Below are positions 2,751 through 39,202 of a DNA stretch of 64,000 nt, piece after piece. Under the pieces are notes generated by a model. The model searched no databases. It saw only the letters and a list, made by a program, of their open reading frames with translations, and was not told where the DNA came from. A program made the translations under genes and the position numbers. The stretch lies in the IMG/VR virus record IMGVR_UViG_3300034122_002094. One strand, written 5' to 3'. Each line of letters opens with the position of its first letter. Position 1 is the stretch's first letter. The DNA comes from a virus.

Positions 2751-3491
2751 ATGAGCAACTATGGTGAGTATCGTTCGGCGAGGGAAGAAGCCAAGACGAA
2801 CGGCAACTGGGATCGTGCGTTCTGGTTGGCTATCAAGATGCCAAGGGGTGAGGAGAGAGACGCCGCGTTGCGAGACTGGTGGTTGACCGAGACCAGCGCT
2901 TATCTCTCGCCCTGCGATCTGAGGATCGAGAAGAACGGGACGAGGAGCGGAGGCTATCGTTTCGGAGCTGCTCGCAGGATCTCTCACCTCACCATGACAG
3001 ACGACTGTTGTGAGATCAGCTACCATGAGGAGCGCGTGTTTCGCGGCTCCGATGTCGAGCTGCCGAAGCTCGCTCACAAGTTTGGTCGGCTCCTCGTTGA
3101 GCGCTTGCTTGAGAGCTTCGAGGCTGAGATCAAGCAGGACATCATCCTGTGGCAGCTCCTGGACCAGTACAGAGAGTCTATCCAGTCGCCCAAGGACAGC
3201 CTGGAGAGGCGCTGGGACATCCATCTGTTGTCGAATGTCTACCTCAGGATCTCTCCCGACGACATCGACGAGCGCCAGCAGCACTCCCTTCTGGAGTCGA
3301 TCGCTTATGCGATGCTCGTCTGCCTTCTGGAGTACGACTACTATCTGGAAGGGGTCGCGCTCCACTATCAGAACGCCTACAATGCGGAGCGCCGCAGCAA
3401 GGGCGAGCAAGAATACTGGGACACAATTGAGGATGTCGGCAGTGAGTACATGACGATCATCCTTCAGGCATACAAGCAGACTCTGCGCTAA
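2751..3491 (+). CDS. hypothetical protein, paralog of 3523
   Basis: GAGG RBS; shares NYGEYRSAREEA..N.NW..MP.G.ERDAALRDWW with the next gene. Confidence 0.85.
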   Translation: MSNYGEYRSAREEAKTNGNWDRAFWLAIKMPRGEERDAALRDWWLTETSAYLSPCDLRIEKNGTRSGGYRFGAARRISHLTMTDDCCEISYHEERVFRGSDVELPKLAHKFGRLLVERLLESFEAEIKQDIILWQLLDQYRESIQSPKDSLERRWDIHLLSNVYLRISPDDIDERQQHSLLESIAYAMLVCLLEYDYYLEGVALHYQNAYNAERRSKGEQEYWDTIEDVGSEYMTIILQAYKQTLR

Positions 3492-3522: not shown

Positions 3523-4203
3523 ATGAACTACGGTGAGTATCGTTCGGCGAGAGAAGAGGCCTTCATCAGCAACAACTGGAGAGAACCGCTGCGCATCCTC
3601 AAGCAGATGCCAGTAGGCGATGAGCGCGACGCAGCGCTGCGTGACTGGTGGATCAATGTTGACATCGACAGCCTCTTGAAGGCAGGCGTACAGTGGATCA
3701 GCGCTTTTGACTCGTATCCTACGGTCGATGCCGCTCGTCACGTCGCGTGGCGATGGGAGATCGGTCAGTGGCACCTGATGATCCTGTCGTATCGTGATAT
3801 GGACCTTGAGAAGATGTCGCATCGTTGGTGCGAGGAGATCATCGAGGAGGCGCTTGTTCAGTATAATGCGGACATTGCTCTGGCAGCGCCCCAAGTGTTT
3901 GACCTGATCGCACAGTACAGGCTTGCGATCAAGACTGAGCCTCGTAGCAAGGAGATGCTCGCTTGCAAGCAAGCCTTGAGAGCGGCCACTCTCAGTCAAC
4001 GCTGGTGGCCCTGGGTTAACAAGCTGCTGATGGCGATGTCAGCGAGGGTGGATCTGGAGATCGGGATTCAGAAAGCAGTGCAGGGGTTCCTCGCTTCTGC
4101 TCGTAACAACTTCTCGTCTCATGACTATGAGGAGACCTACCAGCAATACAACGACAGGTTCACAAAGAAGGTCCTCGTGGCCTACAAGGATACAGTGAAA
4201 TAA
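3523..4203 (+). CDS. hypothetical protein, paralog of 2751
   Basis: AGGAG RBS; shared N-terminus and similar C-terminus (AYKQTLR/AYKDTVK). Confidence 0.85.
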   Translation: MNYGEYRSAREEAFISNNWREPLRILKQMPVGDERDAALRDWWINVDIDSLLKAGVQWISAFDSYPTVDAARHVAWRWEIGQWHLMILSYRDMDLEKMSHRWCEEIIEEALVQYNADIALAAPQVFDLIAQYRLAIKTEPRSKEMLACKQALRAATLSQRWWPWVNKLLMAMSARVDLEIGIQKAVQGFLASARNNFSSHDYEETYQQYNDRFTKKVLVAYKDTVK

Positions 4204-4264
4204 TCGTCAGGCAAGCGGCATCATGACAGGCAGTCGTGGTGTCGCTCGCATCGCTGATGATGCG
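4201..4264 (+). repeat. class A intergenic hairpin element, copy 1
   Basis: ATCGTCAG/CTGATGAT lower stem, 14-bp GU-containing upper stem, CGCATC-N6-GATGCG. Confidence 0.9.
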
Positions 4265-4295
4265 GTATCTCAACTCTCAACTCAAGGAGTCTATC

Positions 4296-5432
4296 ATGAT
4301 CAATCTCAATGAAATGTCAGTAGAAAACATCAATCAGATCAAGCTGTTGGCCAAGATCTATGACACAAAGTCAGACGACGCTCAGCCGATTATCAACATG
4401 TTCCTTGACATGTTCGGTCGGGACTACTTGATCGAGGACCACTTCGAGCTGTGCTGGTGGCTGTTTCATCTGGAGCACGCGGAGCACAGAGATGCTCTTG
4501 ACATTATCACCAACATCTACAACGAGAAGAAGCACCGAGCGTGGGGATCGCTATTTGCGCCCACTGAAAACCTGATCGAGCTGCCTCAGTTCATCGGCGA
4601 TGCTTACAGTGCTGCTGATGTCGAGAGCTTCCTGATGACAGCTTCAAAGCTCGGGCATCGCTTCTTTGATCATCCCTCACTGCCGAAGCTGCGCAGATCT
4701 ATCATCCTCGACTTCGATGACGAGCAGGCGCAGAGGATCAACTACTTCTCGGCAGGGCACCATCTACCGCTGCGCTACTGTGGAGCAGGCATCCTCGTGC
4801 CTCACGTCAGAGACTATATGCCGTGGACCCTCATGCCAAAGCAGAATGTCCACAGGGCCATCCTGGACGTCAACGTCGCTGAGATCAACCAAGATCCGCT
4901 GGTTGATGAAGGTGACTCGGTCAGTCAGGCTGTCCATGATATGGACTGTTTGTGTGACATGGAGTTTCGTGATGGTCGCGTCGACAGTCGCAAGAGTGCT
5001 GTGATCGACCATCGACTCGCCGCTCTGGCTGAGAAGTTCTTTCCCCATCGCGATCCTTATGACGTGATGGTGCGCATCTCCCCGATCACTGATGGTGCTG
5101 TGTCGAAGACCTACCGCTCAAAGAGCATGAAGCTGACCTTCAGTCACAAGGAGGACCGTGTCAGGATCTCTTCTCGCTACTATGTAGCAGAGGGTAACGA
5201 TGACCCGATCTCTTATGCGAAGGTCATGGCCAGGGTTCGGCTGTGGGCTGCCGAGGACGGCGCAAACAACGTCGTGATGTCCGGCGTCGACACACATGCC
5301 GAGTTCACTGTCTGGCCCTCTGTGCAAACTCAAGAGCCTTTTGACTATTTTGACACGCTCTTGGAGTCAGGCGCGACTGTCTGTCTTCGTCAAATCGTCC
5401 CGCGTCTCACGCTCAGGCGTTATCCTGTCTGA
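4296..5432 (+). CDS. hypothetical protein, paralog of 7008
   Basis: AAGGAG RBS; GR.Y.IEDH, KKHRAWG and LP.FIGD shared with 7008. Confidence 0.85.
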   Translation: MINLNEMSVENINQIKLLAKIYDTKSDDAQPIINMFLDMFGRDYLIEDHFELCWWLFHLEHAEHRDALDIITNIYNEKKHRAWGSLFAPTENLIELPQFIGDAYSAADVESFLMTASKLGHRFFDHPSLPKLRRSIILDFDDEQAQRINYFSAGHHLPLRYCGAGILVPHVRDYMPWTLMPKQNVHRAILDVNVAEINQDPLVDEGDSVSQAVHDMDCLCDMEFRDGRVDSRKSAVIDHRLAALAEKFFPHRDPYDVMVRISPITDGAVSKTYRSKSMKLTFSHKEDRVRISSRYYVAEGNDDPISYAKVMARVRLWAAEDGANNVVMSGVDTHAEFTVWPSVQTQEPFDYFDTLLESGATVCLRQIVPRLTLRRYPV

Positions 5433-5493
5433 TCGTCAGGCAAGTGGTATCATCCACTCATGTGGTGGTATCACTCGCATCGCTGATGATGCG
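5430..5493 (+). repeat. class A intergenic hairpin element, copy 2
   Basis: Same flanks; upper stem AGTGGTATCA/TGGTATCACT plus CCAC/GTGG. Confidence 0.9.
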
Positions 5494-5509
5494 TTCACAG
5501 GAGTCTCAA

Positions 5510-6130
5510 ATGTCCGCCGATAACAACACCGTCGCTCCCATTGCCCGCCCGACTCCCTACTACACCCACAGCACCAACTCCTCGCGCAACGAGGAGACTG
5601 GCCACAACACCGACATCCGATTCGGCAAGCAGATCGGTCCTCGCTACATCGATCTCCAGCTCTACCGTCGAAACGGCGGCACCGAGCTGTATGTGAGCAG
5701 CTATGTCAGCTACGATGCGATGGTGGTGCTCAACGCTCCGAGCATCCACGCCAGCAAGTGGCACCTCTATGACAGCATGGACCAGCAGCGATGCAAGGCC
5801 TATGGCATCAAGGGCAGCCAGTTTGAGGATCTGGTGGCTGCGATCAAGGAGGAGATCCCCGAGGATGTTGCGGACGTGTGGCAGGAGGTGATGTACCTCG
5901 TCTGCCTCATCACTGAGGAGCCGCTCTATAACCTCATCTCGCCGCATCGCGAGAACGCCTACAACAGCCACAAGAAGGCGATCTTCGGGCCGTGGGGCGC
6001 CGAGTACAAGCCCTTTGTACCCGTCAAGCCGGACATGGGTGATCTGTCGCCGATCCAGTGGTTGCAGCGCAACTGGTGGATCGATGGTGTTGGTCGTGTC
6101 TGCGTCGGCGATGGCCCCTGCTACTTCTGA
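5510..6130 (+). CDS. hypothetical protein
   Basis: AGGAG RBS after class A element. Confidence 0.85.
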   Translation: MSADNNTVAPIARPTPYYTHSTNSSRNEETGHNTDIRFGKQIGPRYIDLQLYRRNGGTELYVSSYVSYDAMVVLNAPSIHASKWHLYDSMDQQRCKAYGIKGSQFEDLVAAIKEEIPEDVADVWQEVMYLVCLITEEPLYNLISPHRENAYNSHKKAIFGPWGAEYKPFVPVKPDMGDLSPIQWLQRNWWIDGVGRVCVGDGPCYF

Positions 6131-6145
6131 TCTGGAGGCCGACTC

Positions 6146-6188
6146 GGCATCACAAGATGCGCATTTTTCGTGTGCGTTTTGTGGTGCT
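6146..6188 (+). other. 18-bp GU-rich RNA hairpin (terminator or processing site)
   Basis: GGCATCACAAGATGCGCA pairs with TGTGCGTTTTGTGGTGCT using G-U pairs; T tract shortly after. Confidence 0.65.
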
Positions 6189-6271
6189 GTGTCGCGCGTT
6201 TTTCAGGAACGTGTCGATCTGGTCCAGTCAAGTCTTACTGGTCCAGAAATTTTAGTGCATCAACCCAAAAG
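6189..6271 (+). repeat. class B intergenic element
   Basis: GTGTCG-N3-GTTTTTCAGG ... AAATTTT ... AACCCAAAAG; alignable with 14730 and 32340. Confidence 0.65.
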
Positions 6272-6286
6272 CCTCAAGGAACTCTT

Positions 6287-6979
6287 ATGGAGCCCAACAA
6301 ACTCAAAATCGCGAGCATGAACACCGCCATTGAACAGGCGCGGCTTATCCGGGAAGACATGCTCCGCAACCCCAGACCACACCAGGATCTCAGCAAGAGA
6401 GTCGACTGGAAGGTCGTCGCTCGCGCATGTGTGACAGACACTCGCGGGTCTTCCCTTCTGAGGATCGACTCTTGGCGCTACTTCGATAACAAGTCGATGG
6501 GAATTGACAAGACAGATGCTGATCAAGCGCCAGAGATCTTCAAGATCGTCTCGGGTATCCTTGCCCCGCAAGGTATCCGTTGGGATAAGCGCTCTTATTA
6601 TAAAGTGAAACAGATTGACTATGAGACACCTGACATCAGATGGGTGATCCCTGACCGCTTCTCAGAAGACGGTCTCATCGGCGCCATGCGGTTGTTCTGG
6701 CCTGTCGAGGTTGAGACAGCTTGGCGAGAGCGTTATGCTCTCTGCTACAACACCATCAGAAAGACCACCATTGGAGCTGAAGCCTACCAATTGGCCCAGT
6801 ATCTGATCGGCAATGCTCACGACTGGCGCTACAACTCGGAGGACCCCTATCCTGGCATCCCGACGCAATGCGTGAGCATCGCTGAGAAGATCCACGAGTG
6901 CAACAGAAACTACTGGACGCATACGCGCGGCGCTCGCAGCGGTCGCAAGCTCATCTCCGAACTCAAGAAGATCATCTGA
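6287..6979 (+). CDS. hypothetical protein
   Basis: AAGGA RBS. Confidence 0.8.
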   Translation: MEPNKLKIASMNTAIEQARLIREDMLRNPRPHQDLSKRVDWKVVARACVTDTRGSSLLRIDSWRYFDNKSMGIDKTDADQAPEIFKIVSGILAPQGIRWDKRSYYKVKQIDYETPDIRWVIPDRFSEDGLIGAMRLFWPVEVETAWRERYALCYNTIRKTTIGAEAYQLAQYLIGNAHDWRYNSEDPYPGIPTQCVSIAEKIHECNRNYWTHTRGARSGRKLISELKKII

Positions 6980-7007
6980 TCTGTCAACAGCCTCATAAGG
7001 AAGCATC

Positions 7008-8114
7008 ATGGTCACGTTCAATGCACCAAACATCGCAGAAGAGTACATCCGCCGCTGGGGCCGCGAGTATCGCATCGAAGATCATCTCTCGATCTCAAAG
7101 TTCATGTTCCTCATGGAGGAGCACAAGGACAAAGAGGTCGTAGCCGAAGTTGTGGCGATGCTCACGAACATGGTCCTCGACAAGAAGCATCGCGCTTGGG
7201 GGCCGCTCTATGGCAAGACAACTGCTGTCGAGCAACTACCTCCTTTCATCGGCGACATGAATGATCCGGCTCAAGTTCAGGATCTGCTCGACAAGGTCGT
7301 CGCCTTCTGTAAGCCCTACAAGAAGCCTTTTGCGGTCGAGGACATCGCAGACGAGATCCTCTATGGTGACAAGCCCATCTCTGAGCGCGAGAACACACTA
7401 GTCCATGCGCTCGCTCGCCTCACAGAAGATCAGTCTCGTCGGATCAACTGCTTGTCAGCAGAGTATCGAGAGGGGCTGTGCTACGGCGCTGTCGGCTTCT
7501 TTCAGTTTGACCACAAGGCGCCTCTCAAGCGTCGCTTCGTCAGAAGCACCAGTCCAGCGATGCTCAGTCTGGCTCAGGTCGAGAAGGTATCAATCTCGGA
7601 TAAGCCGACAGATGAGCAGAACACCAACGCCAAGATCGTCCTCCAGTTCTTCATGGAGCACAGCGAATCGGTCGAGAGCATGATCGACAACACTCATGAC
7701 TACACTGTGCTCACAGGTTCAGCGCTTGTTGAGCAGATCTGTAACGCAATCTCTCATGCAAGAGGTAGAGGTCCGCTGCCGATCTCGCCGGTCAATGGAT
7801 GGATGCTTGACCAGCACACCATCATTGAGCACAGCATGGTCACTATCCTGGCTGGCGGTGATGGCTCTCAGCAGATGACCTCTCTTTGCTCCATGTACAA
7901 AGGCCCGAGCGTGTCATCGATCTGCGGCTTGGAGTTTGAGCTCTTGGAGTATGACGGCAGCAGCTCAGACATCGCGACCCAGCTACGCATGGATCATGTC
8001 ATCGCAAGCTATCAGACCAAGAGCATCACCACCAAAGCTGCTGATACAGCGATGGCAGCGAAGCTCATGTGTCTGCCAGCGCCGGATCTCAACGCCTCAA
8101 AGAGCGATCGCTAA
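7008..8114 (+). CDS. hypothetical protein, paralog of 4296
   Basis: TAAGGA RBS; shared motifs with 4296. Confidence 0.85.
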   Translation: MVTFNAPNIAEEYIRRWGREYRIEDHLSISKFMFLMEEHKDKEVVAEVVAMLTNMVLDKKHRAWGPLYGKTTAVEQLPPFIGDMNDPAQVQDLLDKVVAFCKPYKKPFAVEDIADEILYGDKPISERENTLVHALARLTEDQSRRINCLSAEYREGLCYGAVGFFQFDHKAPLKRRFVRSTSPAMLSLAQVEKVSISDKPTDEQNTNAKIVLQFFMEHSESVESMIDNTHDYTVLTGSALVEQICNAISHARGRGPLPISPVNGWMLDQHTIIEHSMVTILAGGDGSQQMTSLCSMYKGPSVSSICGLEFELLEYDGSSSDIATQLRMDHVIASYQTKSITTKAADTAMAAKLMCLPAPDLNASKSDR

Positions 8115-8121
8115 AATATCG

Positions 8122-8150
8122 TTGCATCAAATTTAATGATGCAGCATGAA
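8122..8150 (+). promoter_or_regulatory. class P promoter
   Basis: CTAAAATATCG-TTGCAT-17-CATGAA, then GGAATGGT..ACCATTCC hairpin. Confidence 0.7.
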
Positions 8151-8207
8151 GGAATGGTGCAGCGCTCGCTGCGCGGAACCATTCCACTCTACATGGAAGA
8201 CGTCATC

Positions 8208-8552
8208 ATGAATCTGACCAAGCTCTCTCAAGACATGTCTCGCGATCGCATCTACGACCGCATGGGCCGGACCCAGTTCTCTGGCACACTCCCCTACTCG
8301 AAGGGACACGATGATGCGCGCCGCCGTATGGCTGTCATCATCCAGACCCGCAAGCTTGCGAGAAAGCTTGATGCGGTGGCTCGCAAGACCGCTGACATCC
8401 GAGCTCGCTCGCTCAACGACAGAAGCTATGCCAAGCAGCTCTTGGAGCTGGAGCGCACCATGTCCGTTCTGCAAGAGAAGATGTGGGCGGTGCGCAGTCA
8501 CTACACCTGCCGCGAGAACAGAGGCCGTCGCTCTCGCAAGAGCGATCGCTAA
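8208..8552 (+). CDS. hypothetical basic protein
   Basis: ORF between two class P promoters. Confidence 0.7.
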   Translation: MNLTKLSQDMSRDRIYDRMGRTQFSGTLPYSKGHDDARRRMAVIIQTRKLARKLDAVARKTADIRARSLNDRSYAKQLLELERTMSVLQEKMWAVRSHYTCRENRGRRSRKSDR

Positions 8553-8559
8553 AATATCG

Positions 8560-8588
8560 TTGCAACAAAATTAGTGATGCCCTATAAA
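8560..8588 (+). promoter_or_regulatory. class P promoter
   Basis: CTAAAATATCG-TTGCAA-17(TAGTG)-TATAAA. Confidence 0.85.
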
Positions 8589-8640
8589 AAAATGGTGCCG
8601 CAACCCATGCCGCAAGGCAAAACAACAAATGGAGAATCCG

Positions 8641-8988
8641 ATGCCCCTCTCTATCGTCATGCCTCTGCTTGAGAACTGCTCCGACTATCAGTGCCACTGT
8701 GTCAAGACATGCGAGCCAGGCTCAGCTCTCGCTCTGTGCTTCGCTCGCAATCGCACGACCATGCTTCGGCGAGAGCTGGCATGGGCCGAACAAGCGGAGG
8801 CCCGCGCTGCTCGTCTGGCATCTGCTGAGACTGTGCTCGGTCACTATGCCCGAGGCTACAACGGATCTGATTTTTATGAGGGTTACATCCTCGGCTATGA
8901 TGGTGAGTCAGACGAGTATGAGCTGACGCAAGAGGACGACAGCTCTATCTGGATCGAAGCCAAGACGATGATTCTTCAGATCAACTGA
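8641..8988 (+). CDS. hypothetical protein
   Basis: GGAG RBS. Confidence 0.75.
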   Translation: MPLSIVMPLLENCSDYQCHCVKTCEPGSALALCFARNRTTMLRRELAWAEQAEARAARLASAETVLGHYARGYNGSDFYEGYILGYDGESDEYELTQEDDSSIWIEAKTMILQIN

Positions 8989-9051
8989 TCGTCAGGCAAG
9001 CGGCATCATCACTCTAGCTGTGGTGGTGTCGCTCGTATCGCTGATGATACG
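8986..9051 (+). repeat. class A intergenic hairpin element, copy 3
   Basis: Same flanks; CGTATC-N6-GATACG variant. Confidence 0.9.
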
Positions 9052-9067
9052 CTAACAGGAGTCCATC

Positions 9068-9412
9068 ATGCCCCTCAAGCAGTTCACTGTGTCTGGTCTC
9101 AACACTGACATCGCTTCGCGCGACGGCATCTATCGTCTCGCTGAGCGTGGCGACGCCAACGATCAGGGCCTCACCTTCGAGGAGTGGGCGTGCGCTGTCT
9201 GCTGCGATATGCAGTTTGACCGCAGCAACACCGCCTACAACTCTATGCTGCTCAAGCTCCGCTATGGCGGTGAGCTTTATAAGCGTTCTGAGCAGCTCTT
9301 TGGCATGGCCTCTGAGGCTGTCCGCAAGATCCTCCTGCACGAGTGGTATGAGGGCGTTGATCCCTCCGAGCTGCGCGTCAAGTTCTCCAAGATCAATAGC
9401 GAGGTGGCATGA
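9068..9412 (+). CDS. hypothetical protein
   Basis: AGGAG RBS. Confidence 0.8.
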   Translation: MPLKQFTVSGLNTDIASRDGIYRLAERGDANDQGLTFEEWACAVCCDMQFDRSNTAYNSMLLKLRYGGELYKRSEQLFGMASEAVRKILLHEWYEGVDPSELRVKFSKINSEVA

Positions 9413-9609
9413 TGAACAAGCATCAGCATGTCTTCAAGAGCGAGAAGCCTTCCTGCCCCTGCTGTGGCGAGTCACTCTCCCTCGTGGCGGCCAACATCGA
9501 CGGCGTGACCTTCACGCTCGGCTGCATCAACTGCAACCCTGAGTCTGACTGGGATCAGGTCGAGGCCCAGATCGCTGCGGCTGTGGCTGTCTGTTCGGGG
9601 AGGGACTGA
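9409..9609 (+). CDS. small zinc-ribbon-like protein
   Basis: CPCC..CINC; coupled start. Confidence 0.7.
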   Translation: MMNKHQHVFKSEKPSCPCCGESLSLVAANIDGVTFTLGCINCNPESDWDQVEAQIAAAVAVCSGRD

Positions 9610-10043
9610 TGTACTACATGCCCCACTTCTGCCTCGGTATGCGCTGGAAGCTGTTCGATATTGCTCGGCAGCTCCCAGATCATACCAAGCATGGCCTGTC
9701 TATCTCAGAGGCGATCTTCACATGGCCGATCGGCTATGTGCTGGGTGATGAGCGCACAGGTGAGATGCGCTTTCACTTCGACGGTCCTCATCTGCGGATC
9801 GTCAACACCCTCACTCGCAAGGAGATCATCGTCGAGAAGGTCAAGGTATCTGACTTTGTTGATCTCGGCCATACGCTGCTAAGTCGTCATGGTCTCTCTG
9901 ATCACGAAGAGAAGATGATCGGCATCGTTGATCGCGCTTTGCAGGATACCTACTGGGATAACATCAAGGATTATCTCAAGTGGAGCAAAGACTTTTACTC
10001 AAAAGGTCGGCTTGAACAGCAAGGCTACGAGTTCGCATACTGA
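9609..10043 (+). CDS. hypothetical protein
   Basis: TGATG coupling. Confidence 0.8.
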   Translation: MYYMPHFCLGMRWKLFDIARQLPDHTKHGLSISEAIFTWPIGYVLGDERTGEMRFHFDGPHLRIVNTLTRKEIIVEKVKVSDFVDLGHTLLSRHGLSDHEEKMIGIVDRALQDTYWDNIKDYLKWSKDFYSKGRLEQQGYEFAY

Positions 10044-10104
10044 TCGTCAGGCAAGTGGAGCTGCTACGCATGGTAGCAGCTCCACTCGTATCGCTGATGA
10101 TACG
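10041..10104 (+). repeat. class A intergenic hairpin element, copy 4
   Basis: Perfect 14-bp upper stem AGTGGAGCTGCTAC/GTAGCAGCTCCACT. Confidence 0.9.
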
Positions 10105-10120
10105 TCAACAGGAGTATATC

Positions 10121-10651
10121 ATGCTCATCGAGGATAGAAGTGCTCAACACACTTCTTATCACGAGATCTATGCTCGTGCTCAGAGATTTGGCGCCAGTGT
10201 ATCTGATCGGAATCGGCTGGCCAAACTCGATGAAGATCGACTCGCGCATGGGCGCGCAGTTCTGGCCAAGGCTTTGCCTCTGGGTCGGGGCTCCACCTCG
10301 TGGTTACTCGCAGTCGCCCTCACGCCCATCATCCATCCGAAAGGAGACGCAATCTCCAAGATGGATCGCACACCACGCTTGCTCGCTGCTCTTGAGGCCG
10401 TGAATCTGAAGCCTTCAGGTCCTCTGGCCGAATGGGCTGGCGAAGACTCAGCGTGGACATCGGCGACGATTGATCTAGAAGATGGATCGGCGCTGTCTCT
10501 TGTCGTGGGATGGCACAAGGGATGGCATCGTCAGCCCAGTCCGTGGGTTTACGACTACGCCCAGATCAGCGTGATGCAGCCAGCTATCCTTGGTGGTGGC
10601 TGGCACTTGATGGATGAATGCACCCTCGATAACAAAGGCAATCGACGGTAG
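10121..10651 (+). CDS. hypothetical protein
   Basis: AGGAG RBS. Confidence 0.8.
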   Translation: MLIEDRSAQHTSYHEIYARAQRFGASVSDRNRLAKLDEDRLAHGRAVLAKALPLGRGSTSWLLAVALTPIIHPKGDAISKMDRTPRLLAALEAVNLKPSGPLAEWAGEDSAWTSATIDLEDGSALSLVVGWHKGWHRQPSPWVYDYAQISVMQPAILGGGWHLMDECTLDNKGNRR

Positions 10652-10680
10652 CTAGCATATAACGCTCATAGGAGGATCTC

Positions 10681-10968
10681 ATGTCAGAAAACAAGTGGCA
10701 CAAGCATGATCGGCCAGACAACACCACCATCCCTCTGTCTTGGTACAGTGATGTCGTGATTCATGGCTATACGTTCTCAGCTCAGATCATCGCGTACAAT
10801 TCTCGTGGCAATGGCCCGTACACGATCAGGACTGGCTTCATCGGATCTGTGCTGCAAGACGAGTGGTCATATGAGTACCATGACCAGCCTGAGCGAGTGC
10901 TCAAGGATGCGATGGATCTCGCTATCGTTCTGCGCGATAGCCTCGCTGGAGCAATCATCCAATCATGA
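10681..10968 (+). CDS. hypothetical protein
   Basis: AGGAGG RBS. Confidence 0.8.
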   Translation: MSENKWHKHDRPDNTTIPLSWYSDVVIHGYTFSAQIIAYNSRGNGPYTIRTGFIGSVLQDEWSYEYHDQPERVLKDAMDLAIVLRDSLAGAIIQS

Positions 10969-11219
10969 TCAGGCGCTACACTGAGAAGTTTCCGCAAGGC
11001 AGCTTACAACCTGAGGACGTCAACCTCTCGCATATGAGTGCCCTCGCCAAGAGAGACGGCAAAGATCTCTGGTTCGCCTGTTGGAAGACAGACGAAACTG
11101 GCCGGATTGCGGCGTGGTCTCTTGGCAACACAGAAGCCGAGGCTCTTCAAAATCTGGCACTCAAGTGCCGAGATCGGCATGAAGCAATTCAGCTAGCTCA
11201 CAAACAGAACCTGTTCTAA
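10965..11219 (+). CDS. hypothetical protein, paralog of 11244
   Basis: TEK.PQGS..NLS..SA.A..DG..LW.A.W..AW. Confidence 0.8.
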   Translation: MIRRYTEKFPQGSLQPEDVNLSHMSALAKRDGKDLWFACWKTDETGRIAAWSLGNTEAEALQNLALKCRDRHEAIQLAHKQNLF

Positions 11220-11243
11220 CCAATATCTGAGAGGGGCTCTGAA

Positions 11244-11480
11244 ATGGTGAACAGAATCACTGAGAAGTACCCACAGGGCAGCCGCGACGGTATCAACCTC
11301 TCTCTGCTGAGCGCGTGGGCGCAACAAGACGGCGAAGAGCTTTGGATCGCCTATTGGCAAGCATACGCCCCACCTCACGCTGTTGCGTGGGCGATTGCTG
11401 ACACAGAAGAGAAGGCGATCGCCAAGCTCTCGCGCCGCTGCTCAGAGAGCGATGCAGTTCTGAGAGCTAAACACCGCTAA
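11244..11480 (+). CDS. hypothetical protein, paralog of 10965
   Basis: Shared motifs with 10965. Confidence 0.8.
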   Translation: MVNRITEKYPQGSRDGINLSLLSAWAQQDGEELWIAYWQAYAPPHAVAWAIADTEEKAIAKLSRRCSESDAVLRAKHR

Positions 11481-11507
11481 AACAAACCAACCTGACAGGA
11501 GTTCCCC

Positions 11508-11729
11508 ATGACCGGATGCAAGTTCACTGTGACCAAGACGCGCGGCGGATGCTGCCTCAAGATCGAGCGCACAACCAAAGGCTTCTTTGGTAACGATGTG
11601 ATGTCAGACCAGCGCAACTTCCAGGACCGTACTCCCGCCGAGGTAAATCAGCTCAAGCGCATGGTCGCTCAGGCTGGTGACGATCTCAACAAGCTCGATG
11701 ATCTGTTGGCCGCTGCTGGCTGGCACTAA
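11508..11729 (+). CDS. hypothetical protein
   Basis: AGGAG RBS. Confidence 0.8.
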   Translation: MTGCKFTVTKTRGGCCLKIERTTKGFFGNDVMSDQRNFQDRTPAEVNQLKRMVAQAGDDLNKLDDLLAAAGWH

Positions 11730-11746
11730 CAACCGAGGAGAATCTC

Positions 11747-12178
11747 ATGAAAACAATTATGACCCCAGTGGTCCTCGCCCTCGACTTCGTGAACCTCAAG
11801 ACGACAGAGCACGCCCTGTTCTTTGTCACTGATGAAGATCCTGGCGACGAAGAGCCGCCAGAGAGCGCAGTCAAGAATCACAAAGAGCTATGCTACCAAG
11901 TCGGCATGTGGGTGATCGGCATGATGGCCCCATCTCTCTCCAATGAGGGGCGACACAGTCGCATCAGGCCGCTGTGGGAAGAGAAGATTGGTAGCACCGC
12001 CACCAGCGACTACGACCTCCACGACGAGAACTGGGATGAGATCCTTCGCTCATGGATCTGCGCTTTGGAAGCAGACATGCTCAAGACCAGCGCCGCCAAG
12101 TTCTCCATCTCCCACAAGATCGGCACCAAGTTCACCGGCAACGGCACTATCGGTGTCGATATGACCGACCTCTACTGA
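11747..12178 (+). CDS. hypothetical protein
   Basis: GAGGAG RBS. Confidence 0.8.
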   Translation: MKTIMTPVVLALDFVNLKTTEHALFFVTDEDPGDEEPPESAVKNHKELCYQVGMWVIGMMAPSLSNEGRHSRIRPLWEEKIGSTATSDYDLHDENWDEILRSWICALEADMLKTSAAKFSISHKIGTKFTGNGTIGVDMTDLY

Positions 12179-12202
12179 ACAACAGCGATCTCTAAAATAT
12201 CG

Positions 12203-12231
12203 TTGCGATAAATTTAGTGATCGCATATCAC
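12203..12231 (+). promoter_or_regulatory. class P promoter
   Basis: CTAAAATATCG-TTGCGA-17(TAGTG)-TATCAC, then AATGGT hairpin. Confidence 0.8.
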
Positions 12232-12292
12232 AAAATGGTGCGCGGCATCACGCCGCCATCATGAATCAAACCCAAGCATCAAGGAACGCATC

Positions 12293-12919
12293 ATGTCCAT
12301 CTCCCTCGACAAGCATCTCAAAGTCACCTACCGCCTCAATGACATCACATGTCACTTCACGAGCAAGCCCATCTATGTGGATCGCATCTTCGAGGTCCTT
12401 GCGCTCAACGAGAAGCTCAGCGTTCACTGCTGTTCAGGCACTGGTTCTGCTGAGTGCTGGCCCCGTGGGATCATCTGCTCGACCAACGAGAAGTACAACA
12501 GCGAGAAGCACGGTGAGAAGCTCTCTGATTTTGAGATGGATAACAGCACCGCTGGCGACGACGTCAGCTACTTCGGCTGGTCTGATCTGCACGCGATGCC
12601 TGTGGCAGAGGTGCAGGACTTCAAGGACTTCGCCGAAGACTTCCGCGACCTCGGGCATCGAGACATCGACAACAGCGACATGTACACGCCCTACCACTGG
12701 GACCTCGATGAGATCCTCGGCGTCAAGAAGAGCCTGAGCGAAGTGATCGCGCAAGTCGATCACACTGAGAGACACAGCTTTGTGGATGAGAATGGCCACA
12801 CGATCCTCGTCGCTATCTCCGCCCCTGAGGCTGGCACTCCCAAAGGCTATCTCGTCGATGACAAAGAGAAGTGGCAGGACGGCCAGTGGCTTGATCCCAA
12901 CCGCTATGACAAAAAGTAG
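12293..12919 (+). CDS. hypothetical protein
   Basis: AAGGA RBS. Confidence 0.8.
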   Translation: MSISLDKHLKVTYRLNDITCHFTSKPIYVDRIFEVLALNEKLSVHCCSGTGSAECWPRGIICSTNEKYNSEKHGEKLSDFEMDNSTAGDDVSYFGWSDLHAMPVAEVQDFKDFAEDFRDLGHRDIDNSDMYTPYHWDLDEILGVKKSLSEVIAQVDHTERHSFVDENGHTILVAISAPEAGTPKGYLVDDKEKWQDGQWLDPNRYDKK

Positions 12920-12984
12920 TAGATCGTGATGCGCTGGGAGCTATGAGCTGTCCTCGTAGCTTCCGCCGTATCAATCACGATACG
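12920..12984 (+). repeat. class A intergenic hairpin element, copy 5 (diverged, compensatory changes)
   Basis: Lower stem ATCGTGAT/ATCACGAT; CGTATC-N6-GATACG; same length and spacing to AGGAG. Confidence 0.8.
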
Positions 12985-13000
12985 CCAACAGGAGTCTTTC

Positions 13001-15675: not shown

Positions 15676-15749
15676 GCAGCGTTAGCATAATTGGATAATG
15701 CAAGGATCTTCTAAGTCCTACCATGTGGGTTCAAGTCCCTCACGCTGTT
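15676..15749 (+). tRNA. tRNA-Arg(TCT)
   Basis: Acceptor GCAGCGT/ACGCTGT, D arm GCAT/ATGC, anticodon arm AGGAT-CTTCTAA-GTCCT, T loop TTCAAGT; T:T mismatch in T stem; no encoded CCA. Confidence 0.85.
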
Positions 15750-16321: not shown

Positions 16322-16394
16322 GGCGTTGTCTGCTAATGGTCAGGCGGTCGGACTTTCAATCCGAAGGTGCTGGGTTCAAATCCCGCCAACGCTA
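16322..16394 (+). tRNA. tRNA-Glu(TTC)
   Basis: Acceptor GGCGTTG/CAACGCT, anticodon arm TCGGA-CTTTCAA-TCCGA, T loop TTCAAAT; irregular T stem; no encoded CCA. Confidence 0.8.
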
Positions 16395-27548: not shown

Positions 27549-28223
27549 ATGGACGAGACCGAAGAGAATATCGTGTTCGATGATGACACCCTGGATCTGG
27601 CCGATGGCGATCTCGATGGCAAGCGCTTCAAGCTTGTGGGTGTCCGGCTGCGCCTCGTCGCACAGCTCATCGTGGAAGACACCACGGCTGGCGCCGATGA
27701 CTTCACCCATCATCTTGACGACCGTGTCGTGACGCTCATGACTCACGATCAGATGCTGCCGCTCCATGAGGTCGCCTTCCTCGGCGAGCTGGTCAACGAT
27801 CCCAATATGGGCTTCAAGATCGACACATCGATCCATGATCTGGCTCTGGCCCCCAATAAGAGCCTGAGCGAGCGCGTAAACGAGATCGCTGACTCCTTCG
27901 ATGAGATGGTCGAGATCGACGTGCCTGTGACGGTCGAGTACCACAAGGAGGACGTCTTGACCGTCAAGGTGCCCAAGGGTGCGCTGCTCCGCGCCGCCAA
28001 GGCTGATGTGGATCGCACAGGTGATGAGTCTAACTCCTCATCCATCAACAAGCTCGTGTATGACTACAACGATGTCGAAGATCTGTATGACGCTCAGAAC
28101 ATGCGGATCTCTCCTGACGTGTTCTGCCAGGTCTCACAACCCCGAGCTGTCAAGTCAGTGAGTGATCCCGAGACCAACGAGAAGTTCCACGAGATCACCA
28201 AGCGCAAGGTCAACAAGCGCTGA
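27549..28223 (+). CDS. hypothetical protein
   Basis: ORF in the + strand gene train. Confidence 0.8.
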   Translation: MDETEENIVFDDDTLDLADGDLDGKRFKLVGVRLRLVAQLIVEDTTAGADDFTHHLDDRVVTLMTHDQMLPLHEVAFLGELVNDPNMGFKIDTSIHDLALAPNKSLSERVNEIADSFDEMVEIDVPVTVEYHKEDVLTVKVPKGALLRAAKADVDRTGDESNSSSINKLVYDYNDVEDLYDAQNMRISPDVFCQVSQPRAVKSVSDPETNEKFHEITKRKVNKR

Positions 28224-28281
28224 TCTGTTGTGGTTCAATAGGTGCTGTGATACACTCGCAGCACCTTCTGACCCCATAACA
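28221..28281 (+). other. long intergenic hairpin with internal loops (class A-like position, different sequence)
   Basis: TGTTGTGG/CCATAACA and AGGTGCTGTGA/TCGCAGCACCT between TGA and GGAGG. Confidence 0.65.
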
Positions 28282-38457: not shown

Positions 38458-38736
38458 ATGAACTATGAAACGCAAAAGAAAAATCACGCTGGTTACATCC
38501 TGATCATGACGACGATGTCTGGCGAGCGGTTCTATGCTGGAAAGAAGAAGGTCATGACCAAGGCGCTCCCCGCCACAGAGTTCCTCTTCGAGACGGTCGA
38601 GGAGGCCCGAGCGTTCGACAGGGAGCTCCAGAGGCGCTGGGCGCAGCCTGGCTTCTGCGGCCTGAGCTGCTTCGTCTCGATCCACGAGGTCGTCCAGAAG
38701 GGCCAGAAGAGGCAGGTGTGCCATGAAGAGGTCTGA
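38458..38736 (+). CDS. hypothetical protein
   Basis: AGGAG upstream. Confidence 0.7.
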   Translation: MNYETQKKNHAGYILIMTTMSGERFYAGKKKVMTKALPATEFLFETVEEARAFDRELQRRWAQPGFCGLSCFVSIHEVVQKGQKRQVCHEEV

Positions 38737-38747
38737 CGACACCAGTT

Positions 38748-39187
38748 GTGTACCGGCTGAATCCATCGACCCCTCCAGACAGCCGGTACACCCTTAAACC
38801 TTTGCACTGCTTTTATTTTCATTGGTGGATCATGGAGCGTGTACAAGCGTGTGTCGGCAAGACCCGGTACACGCTTTTCCTTTTGTTTATCAGTCGTTTA
38901 ATACAGAAAACAAGGGCGTGTACCGCCACTCTGGGCTCTTTCTTTATATTTTCTAAGAGAGCACAAGAAAAGAGCACGGCCCCCCGGTACACGCACTGTT
39001 GAGCATACAGAAACTATTTACACTGTGACACTTTAGGTGTGTACCGGGCCAGCTTGCACACAGTCGGTACACAGCCCGATTTGCCCGGCACACACCTTTC
39101 TGTTGACACAAGCTATCGAAGCGATCTATAAAGTAAAAAGCGTGTACCGGCGTTAAAAACCACCGTGTACCGCCCCACCCGGTACAC
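38748..39187. repeat. array of GTGTACCG motifs in both orientations (candidate origin or iteron array)
   Basis: + copies at 38748, 38918, 39039, 39142, 39165; - copies at ~38784, 38865, 38985, 39065, 39180; AT-rich spacers; non-coding. Confidence 0.85.
39103..39132 (+). promoter_or_regulatory. sigma70-like promoter inside the repeat array
   Basis: TTGACA-18-TATAAA. Confidence 0.6.
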
Positions 39188-39202
39188 ACCATAGGAGCTA
39201 CC

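Follow-up and report, generated by a model that had tools for sequence, protein, structure and literature searches.

An uncultured 177-kb lake phage carries, among its early genes, five copies of a conserved RNA hairpin of ~64 bases. Each copy fills the gap between the stop codon of the upstream gene and the strong ribosome-binding site (RBS) of the next. The element is a selected mRNA structure, intercistronic and on the sense strand, in the early mRNA of a novel tailed phage. Judged by architecture only, we put at about one half the probability that the elements are T7-style RNase III processing and stabilising signals. Intercistronic hairpins at which polycistronic messages are cut and capped are textbook knowledge for T7 and SP82/SPO1; to our knowledge, they have hardly been looked for among uncultured phages.

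A hairpin family at early gene junctions

Positions refer to the window, i.e. the whole 64,000-nucleotide stretch of DNA analysed, and are given in Table 1. From the base upward, each hairpin comprises an 8-bp lower stem, a 4-nt 3′ bulge, 2 bp, a 1x1 mismatch and an upper stem of ~14 bp, closed by a loop of 4–7 nt. Sequence is invariant in the base, bulge, mismatch and 3′ tail, with near-identical blocks of 14–17 nt at the base of the copies, and the loop and upper-stem sequences are free to vary; the upper stem of copy 4 is unrelated in sequence and wholly Watson-Crick. The bulge reads AUCG, or AUCA in copy 5, whose lower stem (ATCGTGAT/ATCACGAT) carries two compensatory changes; compensation there had been reported in the initial annotation. 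In copies 1–4 the first base of the stem is part of the upstream stop codon, and in copy 5 a second in-frame TAG occupies this place. With orthologues included, the stop codon adjoins or sits inside the stem base in 11/11 instances, unrelated upstream genes included, its place ranging from 3 nt upstream of the stem to 6 nt within it. The distance from the GATRCG end to AGGAG is 5 nt in copies 2–5 and 20 nt in copy 1, and the RBS box, ACAGGAGT, is conserved. The positions and geometry first described thus held for all five copies.

Table 1. Elements and associated features in the window. Bits are covariance model scores.
Feature	Position	Strand	Details
Copy 1 hairpin	4201..4266	+	stop TAA 4201-4203; 84.6 bits
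Copy 1 small alternative hairpin	4247-4264	+	C:G type
Copy 1 downstream		+	20-nt spacer with duplicated CTCAACT; AGGAG 4285-4289; ATG 4296
Copy 2 hairpin	5430..5495	+	stop TGA 5430-5432; 80.8 bits
Copy 2 small hairpin	5476-5493	+	C:G type; AGGAG 5499-5503; ATG 5510
Copy 3 hairpin	8986..9053	+	7-nt loop; stop TGA 8986-8988; 83.7 bits
Copy 3 small hairpin	9034-9051	+	U:A type; AGGAG 9057-9061; ATG 9068
Copy 4 hairpin	10041..10106	+	stop TGA 10041-10043; 84.4 bits
Copy 4 small hairpin	10087-10104	+	U:A type; AGGAG 10110-10114; ATG 10121
176-aa ORFan	10121..10651	+	directly 3′ of copy 4; missing from relatives L037 and L038
Copy 5 hairpin	12920..12986	+	gene stop TAG 12917-12919, second TAG 12920-12922; 76.3 bits
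Copy 5 small hairpin	12967-12984	+	U:A type; AGGAG 12990-12994; ATG 13001
Separate stop-to-RBS hairpin	28221..28281	+	22 bp; overall layout similar to elements

A covariance model, proposed in the initial annotation, recovered exactly the five known copies from the complete 176.7-kb phage genome (76–85 bits, E 1e-17 to 1e-20), the next-best sense-strand match scoring 15.8 bits. The separate hairpin at 28221–28281 had been suggested as a diverged member; with filters off it scored 12.3 bits, against 61–85 bits for members, and is ruled out of the family. An Rfam search of the window returned two tRNAs only, with the elements unmatched even at E up to 1. Represented by 11 sequences that covary strongly, and absent from Rfam, the family is new, and in searches so far it is confined to this phage lineage.

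Sense-strand folding and conservation

The plus-strand folds of the copies range from -30 to -38 kcal/mol (z -4.3 to -6.4), and none of 200 shuffles folded as well. Minus-strand folds are much weaker in four of the five copies, because ~16% of the pairs are G-U. When the five copies are aligned, the 24 pairs are 97.5% paired and 10 have changed on both sides (0/500 shuffles); with orthologues included, the 11 sequences are 97.7% paired (0/500 shuffles). In three diverged metagenome relatives the elements retain 76–98% identity, against 24–84% at four-fold sites of the flanking genes, and the changes between relatives keep pairing. The copy 1 orthologue (contig L033) is identical at 65/66 positions, and copy 2 has two orthologues (L033:2170-2233 and L041:3761-3825). 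That of copy 3 (L041:6635-6699) matches at 91% of positions, the flanking gene at 55% of its nucleotides. The copy 4 orthologue (L037:569-634) shows one compensatory and three G-U changes, and that of copy 5 (L038:1701-1766) has a different upper stem and an upstream stop, TGA, inside the lower stem. Action of the element as sense-strand RNA is supported by the G-U pairs, by the compensatory changes and by conservation that greatly exceeds that of neutral sites; plus-strand folding, claimed at the outset, agrees with the fold energies as well.

A candidate processing signal with two folds

In its long fold, the element forms an interrupted helix of ~24 bp, or two turns, in which the conserved 4-nt 3′ bulge and the 1x1 mismatch lie close to the base; bacterial RNase III substrates are built in this way. 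For RNase III, a substrate of 22 bp is ideal; where a bulge or internal loop interrupts it, cutting is single-stranded and a stabilising 3′ hairpin is left behind (PMC3867540). A dsRNA enzyme would require just such a long duplex, whatever its sequence, together with a conserved imperfection, and this supports processing; strong conservation of the base would be just as expected if a sequence-specific protein bound there. The cut at the element would most likely be made by host RNase III, or by another host nuclease specific for double strands, and would split the polycistronic early message into units. A search of the phage genome for an RNase III gene found none. The upstream unit would retain a protective 3′ hairpin and, were the cut 5′ of C49, the new 5′ end of the downstream unit could refold as a small hairpin, CGYAUC-N6-GAURCG, just before a free Shine-Dalgarno. 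Within this reading, the cutting itself, the nuclease responsible, the place of the cut and the stabilising roles are our inference. Hairpin-capped message ends would fit the style of a phage whose sigma70-like promoters are followed by 5′-terminal hairpins (AAUGG...CCAUU). The cut position is unpredictable because the helix is longer than T7 sites and the bulge lies 17 positions below the loop. A cut inside the bulge, as in T7, would bar the small hairpin on the product.

The palindrome that underlies the small hairpin, CGYATC-N6-GATRCG, is present in all five copies, as C:G in copies 1–2 and U:A in copies 3–5. Y51:R64 is never mixed among the 11 sequences (5 C:G, 6 U:A). The second palindrome, first described as covarying and incompatible with the lower stem, is real, but the covariation is limited to this one pair (59/500 shuffles with five sequences; 2/500 with 11, which are non-independent). 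The two folds are mutually exclusive, and the small-hairpin fold lies 3–6 kcal/mol above the long one. The two-state design is unusually explicit, the second fold pairing every conserved base that the first leaves unpaired. A 3′ fragment starting at CGYAUC forms the small hairpin in 8/9 copies, two of these being one pair short. Similarly, blocking the first 13–16 nt gives a predicted upper stem with the small hairpin directly adjacent in 8/9 copies.

These fold calculations are consistent with the ribosome-triggered switch of the initial annotation, which we regard as a possible but clearly less probable reading than processing. A terminating ribosome would unzip the lower stem of 8–10 bp, and the freed 3′ strand would form the small hairpin, stacked directly on the upper stem, so that toggling would couple something to upstream translation. 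The output might be re-initiation at the RBS close by, as stop codon and Shine-Dalgarno would be drawn together by the long stem, or protection from a dsRNA nuclease. The stop codon at or inside every stem base, even after an unrelated upstream gene, and the unmixed Y51:R64 pair would suit such a device. However, no translational output is evident, because the Shine-Dalgarno and AUG are calculated to be unpaired in both folds. Moreover, the single covarying pair comes from copies that are related or exchanged through recombination, and the geometry is not strict, given the variable place of the stop codon and the 20-nt spacer of copy 1. T7 RNase III sites also have the stop at the base, yet are not switches.

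Somewhat less probable again is that a sequence-specific protein other than RNase III binds the invariant base, bulge and tail. Candidates would be an early protein of the phage or a factor of the host, either regulating translation or serving as a dedicated endoribonuclease. The clustering of invariant positions at the base, bulge, mismatch and 3′ tail beneath a variable top would be expected of such a site, the family is private to this phage lineage, and the ORFan neighbours could encode the factor. For the comparable SAS/ESAS motifs of cluster K mycobacteriophages, binding of an unidentified factor has been proposed (PMC3203893). However, homologues of RegB, Csy4 and Cas6 were sought in the genome and none found, no candidate protein emerged, and the small hairpin already explains all conserved unpaired bases.

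We give slightly less weight still to a processing switch gated by translation. Terminating ribosomes may hold the lower stem open, leaving the 14-bp upper stem and stacked small hairpin, which may be too short or irregular for a dsRNA nuclease; when upstream translation ceases, the full two-turn helix may form and be cut. The fate of each cistron's mRNA would then be set by translation of its neighbour. If either cut-and-refold processing or this gated form is true, the element would explain how large phages set early mRNA stability gene by gene without a promoter for each, and could be a source of compact, natural insulators for building synthetic operons. As an RNase III site and nothing more, it would be an ordinary finding made in a new phage lineage.

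Gene exchange and operon context

Comparison with relatives gives direct evidence that the elements are seams where early ORFan cassettes are swapped. In L037 and L038, which lack the 176-aa ORFan, the element and its RBS stand directly before the homologue of the 95-aa gene (10681–10968). The gene order of relative B is exactly that expected from recombination between copies 3 and 4, with deletion. Copy 2 has stayed with its downstream gene while the upstream gene was swapped, and assemblies break inside the element. An association with synteny breakpoints, raised in the initial annotation, was found at 4/5 element junctions (copies 1–4); however, 7/17 other junctions are broken too, making the association statistically inseparable from regional plasticity.

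A DNA-level element with an incidental RNA fold could account for these rearrangements, whether as a recombination or cassette-shuffling site like PeSL (promoter-early stem-loop), an operator or a small mobile palindrome. We consider this improbable: the G-U pairs leave the minus strand and the DNA palindrome imperfect, all copies share one orientation and a fixed register to stop codon and RBS, and breakpoints are not clearly enriched over element-free junctions. An operator role, as first suggested, is unlikely because pairing rather than sequence is kept and the genome has just two further occurrences of the small palindrome. A REP/RAYT-type mobile palindrome was rejected on the same orientation and register, together with the lack of a Y1 transposase (PF01797) match in the genome. 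Under the preferred processing reading, exchange could be a by-product, with the 14–17 nt base blocks acting as homology patches.

The elements lie inside same-strand gene runs flanked by promoter cassettes and terminator-like hairpins; all five have same-strand genes on both sides and are presumably transcribed with them. The neighbouring genes are all ORFans. For copies 3 and 5, the gene just upstream is the first one behind a promoter cassette. This placing, with the high stability of the hairpins, would suit a transcription attenuator or factor-dependent terminator limiting read-through from the upstream gene, but we think this very improbable, as copies 1, 2 and 4 lie deep in gene runs and a strong RBS and conserved gene directly follow every element. 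No U-tract follows the stem in any of the five copies (the sequence there is RCGNNAACAGGAG) and the terminator scan lists none of them, whereas terminator-like sites elsewhere in the genome carry U-runs; intrinsic (Rho-independent) termination was rejected on these grounds.

Comparison with known phage elements

Three known systems resemble the elements. The SAS/ESAS motifs of cluster K mycobacteriophages and cluster EF Microbacterium phages consist of a conserved 13-bp start-associated motif and ESAS arms of 17 bp, sequence-conserved, with 4–13 bp spacers; their function was still not established in 2025 (PMC3203893, PMC7302621, PMC12699233). Like the elements, they are imperfect inverted repeats with a variable spacer, placed just ahead of an RBS motif that is conserved to an unusual degree; they precede some of the non-structural genes and are conserved across subclusters even where the gene differs. 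However, the elements have no similarity to the published consensus, GGGATAGGAGCCC, and have 24-bp arms conserved only at the base, with a covarying 14-bp top. The phages are also of a different type and presumably infect a different host. We therefore rejected an assignment to SAS/ESAS, despite the conserved RBS box.

PeSL cassettes of T4-type phages are defined by a sigma70-like promoter preceded by a short terminator stem-loop (PMC2839356, PMC4122927). Both they and the elements are repeated intergenic cassettes that end in a Shine-Dalgarno and start codon and are concentrated among the ORFans of a hyperplastic early region. PeSL cassettes sit at insertion, deletion and replacement breakpoints; breakpoints between the relatives here fall at 4/5 element junctions and at 7/17 others. 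Moreover, the deletion between two tandem element copies fits the PeSL mini-circle model. PeSL, however, has a promoter, whereas here the hairpin is the whole element: a search for -35/-10 matches in or beside each copy found none, and the elements are not PeSL cassettes. The promoters of this phage are a separate repeat family, D1/D2, whose repeats in the window are its PeSL-like cassettes.

The closest parallel is with the RNase III signals of the T7 early and late mRNAs (R0.3, R0.5, R1, R1.1, R1.3 and others), which likewise form a family of hairpins repeated between the genes of a polycistronic message. Six T7 R-sites were built into a covariance model that recovers the untrained sites R6.5 and R18.5; it gave no match in the window at E up to 10, and there is therefore no sequence kinship between the two. 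The likeness is one of layout, which the T7 R-sites share when folded here. In R0.5 and R1 the stem base starts from the upstream stop codon, the helix contains an internal loop and the site finishes ~20 nt ahead of the start codon. The elements share the stem base at the stop codon, the internal imperfection with conserved flanks and variable loop, and the end shortly before the next RBS, and neither type needs a promoter or U-tract. They differ in helix (8+2+14 bp against about 6+10 bp), in imperfection (a one-sided 4-nt bulge and 1x1 mismatch against a two-sided internal loop) and in having a covarying alternative small hairpin, and RNase III cleavage, which occurs at the T7 signals, is putative in the elements. 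Nevertheless, at 24 bp with a bulge and a mismatch, the element helix is a two-turn interrupted hairpin of the T7 type.

Structure of the hairpin elements

The five elements that run from an upstream stop codon to the next ribosome-binding site lie exactly where the initial annotation had placed them, and they align over 66-68 nt (copies 1-5). On the plus strand each of the five folds as a single hairpin, with an 8-bp lower stem, a 4-nt 3′ bulge, 2 bp, a 1x1 mismatch, an upper stem of ~14 bp and a loop of 4-7 nt. Fold energies range from -30 to -38 kcal/mol (z -4.3 to -6.4). The annotated plus-strand folding was borne out as well: the fold bears G-U pairs, and as these make up about one sixth of all pairs, the reverse complement folds far more weakly in 4/5 copies. 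Among the five copies, both partners have changed in 10 of 24 pairs, and 97.5% of cells are paired, which was equalled by 0/500 shuffles. As a control on this alignment, sliding the partner columns abolished the pairing signal.

A covariance-model scan of the complete genome, proposed together with the elements, scored the five copies at 76-85 bits and the next sense-strand match at 15.8 bits. No further copies were found in the genome, and the elements had no match in Rfam. The hairpin at 28221-28281, suggested earlier to be a sequence-diverged member, reached only 12.3 bits with filters off and was rejected, as it resembles the family in layout only. Stop-codon readthrough, or N-terminal extension across the element, was dropped because reading frames differ among copies 1-5. 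For the gene that follows copy 4, public gene calls take an ATG within the hairpin loop as the start (193 aa). A later ATG has the conserved AGGAG in front of it (176 aa), and in the longer call the element has probably led to a wrongly assigned start site.

Features of the window and their counterparts in related contigs
Feature	Window position	Remarks
Copy 1	4201-4266
Copy 2	5430-5495
Copy 3	8986-9053
Copy 4	10041-10106
Copy 5	12920-12986
D1/D2 promoter cassettes	8112, 8550, 12193, 17534, 24624, 29507, 33324, 40764, 61847	~44-64 nt each; in relative B L041:5753-5868, L041:6190-6289, L038:1118-1247
Gap with palindrome	2459-2751	289 nt; comparable gap at L041:1542-1968
Gap after 206-aa gene	6128-6287	156 nt; L041:4446-4618
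Paralogous genes	2751-3491, 3523-4203
378-aa ORFan	4296-5432
368-aa ORFan	7008-8114
ATG in copy 4 loop	10070	L034:9362
176-aa gene	10121-10651
95-aa gene	10681-10968
tRNA genes	15676-15749, 16322-16394	RF00005, 54 bits each
Repeated boxes	38734-39200, -22667	the latter at genome 62018

Orthologous elements in relatives

When JGI metagenome contigs and 185,579 prokaryote genomes were scanned for the pattern, only chance matches resulted (≤34 bits, without hairpins), and an exact-pattern scan of IMG/VR gave nothing above chance. Protein searches with the flanking genes recovered L034-L036, contigs of the identical strain, as well as three diverged relatives, namely L033 (84% amino-acid identity), L037 (81%) and relative B, which consists of L041 and L038 from one sample (SRR15709929). 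The end of L041 (6707) and the start of L038 (1) both fall within one element, where the two contigs overlap; short-read assemblies break at this repeat, and copy numbers in the relatives may therefore be under-counted. Searching outward from the relatives' end genes yielded no new contigs, and L042, which encodes a distant homologue of the 378-aa protein, contains no element.

The annotation had also proposed scanning relatives, and orthologous elements were present in all three diverged ones, with identities of 98, 94, 85, 91, 91 and 76%. At four-fold degenerate sites the flanking genes reach, in the same order, only 68-84, 68, 44, 59, 24 and 43% identity. Changes between orthologues are mostly compensatory or G-U: the L037 orthologue carries one U-A to C-G change and three G-U changes, and the upper stem of the L038 orthologue is wholly different yet paired. 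Across eleven sequences the long fold is 97.7% paired (0/500 shuffles). The element is a sense-RNA structure under selection.

Proposed function and the second fold

The element fits a dsRNA-specific processing signal, in that it provides a two-turn duplex of any sequence whose loop varies and whose imperfection near the base is conserved, leaves Shine-Dalgarno access unaffected and occupies an intercistronic site. The ideal RNase III substrate is 22 bp, and bulges direct cutting to a single strand, leaving 3′ hairpins that are stabilising (PMC3867540). On the strength of these features, the plan of the T7 intercistronic RNase III hairpins (R-sites) and the RNase III literature, we favour processing by host RNase III, at roughly even odds (probability about 0.5). 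The enzyme would cut at the element and leave the upstream mRNA unit capped by a hairpin, and the new 5′ end of the downstream unit would possibly refold. The phage itself encodes no RNase III, RegB, Csy4, Cas6 or Y1 transposase.

A second palindrome had been described, CGYAUC-N6-GAURCG, whose small hairpin is mutually exclusive with the lower stem. It is present in 11/11 sequences and pairs in every one. Position 51:64 is C:G in five, U:A in six and mixed in none; the claimed covariation is limited to this one pair (59/500 shuffles for the five paralogues, 2/500 for the eleven non-independent sequences). Copy 3 has the upper stem of copies 1-2 and the 51:64 state of copies 4-5, which implies either two changes or an exchange between copies. 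Conserved bases left unpaired in the long hairpin (C49, bulge AUC, tail RCG) are all paired in the small one. Moreover, when the first 13-16 nt were blocked to mimic a terminating ribosome, RNAfold predicted the upper stem with a directly abutting small hairpin in 8/9 copies. Both observations favour the second fold. A switch reset by the ribosome, for which this blocked fold would provide the second state, is possible though unlikely. The small-hairpin state lies only 3-6 kcal/mol above the long fold (RNAfold). The Shine-Dalgarno and AUG are unpaired in both predicted states. Shine-Dalgarno sequestration is absent from every predicted state. Recognition by another sequence-specific RNA-binding protein, for which the invariant base, bulge and tail would form the binding site, is improbable.

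Rearrangements at the elements

Breakpoints were sought by gene-by-gene comparison of the window with its relatives. Copy 2 and its orthologue in relative B (E1) keep the same downstream 206-aa gene (77% identity). Upstream of the element the two differ: the window has the 378-aa gene, and relative B has an unrelated gene of 117 aa, its 378-aa homologue standing further downstream without elements. In L037 the only gene missing is the 176-aa one that follows copy 4. In relative B the 95-aa gene homologue comes immediately after the copy 3 orthologue, and the segment 114-66-144-[copy 4]-176 (product lengths in aa) is missing, the outcome expected of recombination between copies 3 and 4 in an L037-like genome. 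DNA similarity downstream of copy 5 does not extend past the element, and identity drops to only 24% in the gene that follows.

The suggestion that synteny breaks at elements thus holds for 4/5 element junctions, but enrichment is not established because 7/17 other junctions are also broken, some of them at promoter cassettes. A primarily DNA-level recombination site, to which the outcome in relative B might be ascribed, is very unlikely given pairing selected in the sense RNA. The DNA operator role put forward in the annotation was rejected as unlikely, as the changes maintain base pairs and not the sequence itself, and outside the elements the palindrome is rare.

Neighbouring promoters and terminators

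The same region contains the D1/D2 cassette family, nine sigma70-like promoters that each begin at the upstream stop codon and read TAAAATATCG, then TTGCA-N17-TATAAA. The spacer of several holds an inverted repeat, TGCATCA...TGATGCA, and at least four have a hairpin, AAUGG...CCAUU, at about +1. Cassettes are kept in relative B. Other gaps contain U-tract terminators. At the five hairpin elements, which are positioned inside gene runs, neither promoter nor U-tract was found. Lacking a U-tract, the element was rejected as a terminator, and an attenuator is barely credible.

The window has the order gene-copy 1-gene-copy 2-gene-terminator-like gap, and relative B keeps gene-E1-gene-terminator-like gap. 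Two or three strong hairpins with T-runs lie in the gap after the 206-aa gene. This gap is conserved in relative B and probably terminates the operon holding copies 1 and 2. A perfect 18-bp palindrome (ACGTTATACAGCCGTATAGG...CCTATACGGCTGTATAAC) occurs in another gap, together with more long hairpins (-116 kcal/mol overall). GTGTACCGG / CCGGTACAC boxes are repeated across several gaps.

Genomic setting

The window represents the minus strand of a virus record that is complete at 176,695 bp, carries direct terminal repeats and has a G+C content of 56.5%. Its genes include those for a large terminase of the T4 type, a Mu-like portal and a tape-measure-like protein of 3,492 aa, besides Hen1 and an RNA ligase, MoxR and numerous ORFans. 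All five elements lie within the first 14 kb of a long plus-strand gene run. The flanking proteins (9/9) and other early genes had no Pfam or PHROGs match, and DNA, flanking-protein and terminase searches of INPHARED and IMG/VR found no close relatives. Two tRNA genes lie amid the early ORFans. The 378-aa and 368-aa ORFans are paralogues: homologues of the former in L033 and relative B match the 368-aa gene at 39% over 88 aa and 28% over 182 aa, respectively. The relative B homologue keeps the N-terminal half of the 378-aa protein (48%), the C-terminal half being replaced. A further paralogue pair precedes copy 1.

Comparison with known systems

When folded in this analysis, the T7 R-sites showed the same plan as the element, and in R0.5 and R1 the stem base is likewise at the upstream stop codon. 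Kinship was excluded, since a covariance model trained on six T7 sites recovers two further T7 sites outside its training set and nothing here. By analogy, the element may work like processing signals of the T7, T3 and SP82 type. PeSL cassettes show similar genomic behaviour, but the elements are without the PeSL-defining promoter (PMC4122927); it is the D1/D2 promoter cassettes that resemble PeSL. SAS/ESAS are likewise hairpins fused to a conserved RBS, of function not known (PMC3203893, PMC12699233). Processing signals of this kind are already known; the element, whose processing role is putative, represents a new RNA family, and its two-state design is explicit.
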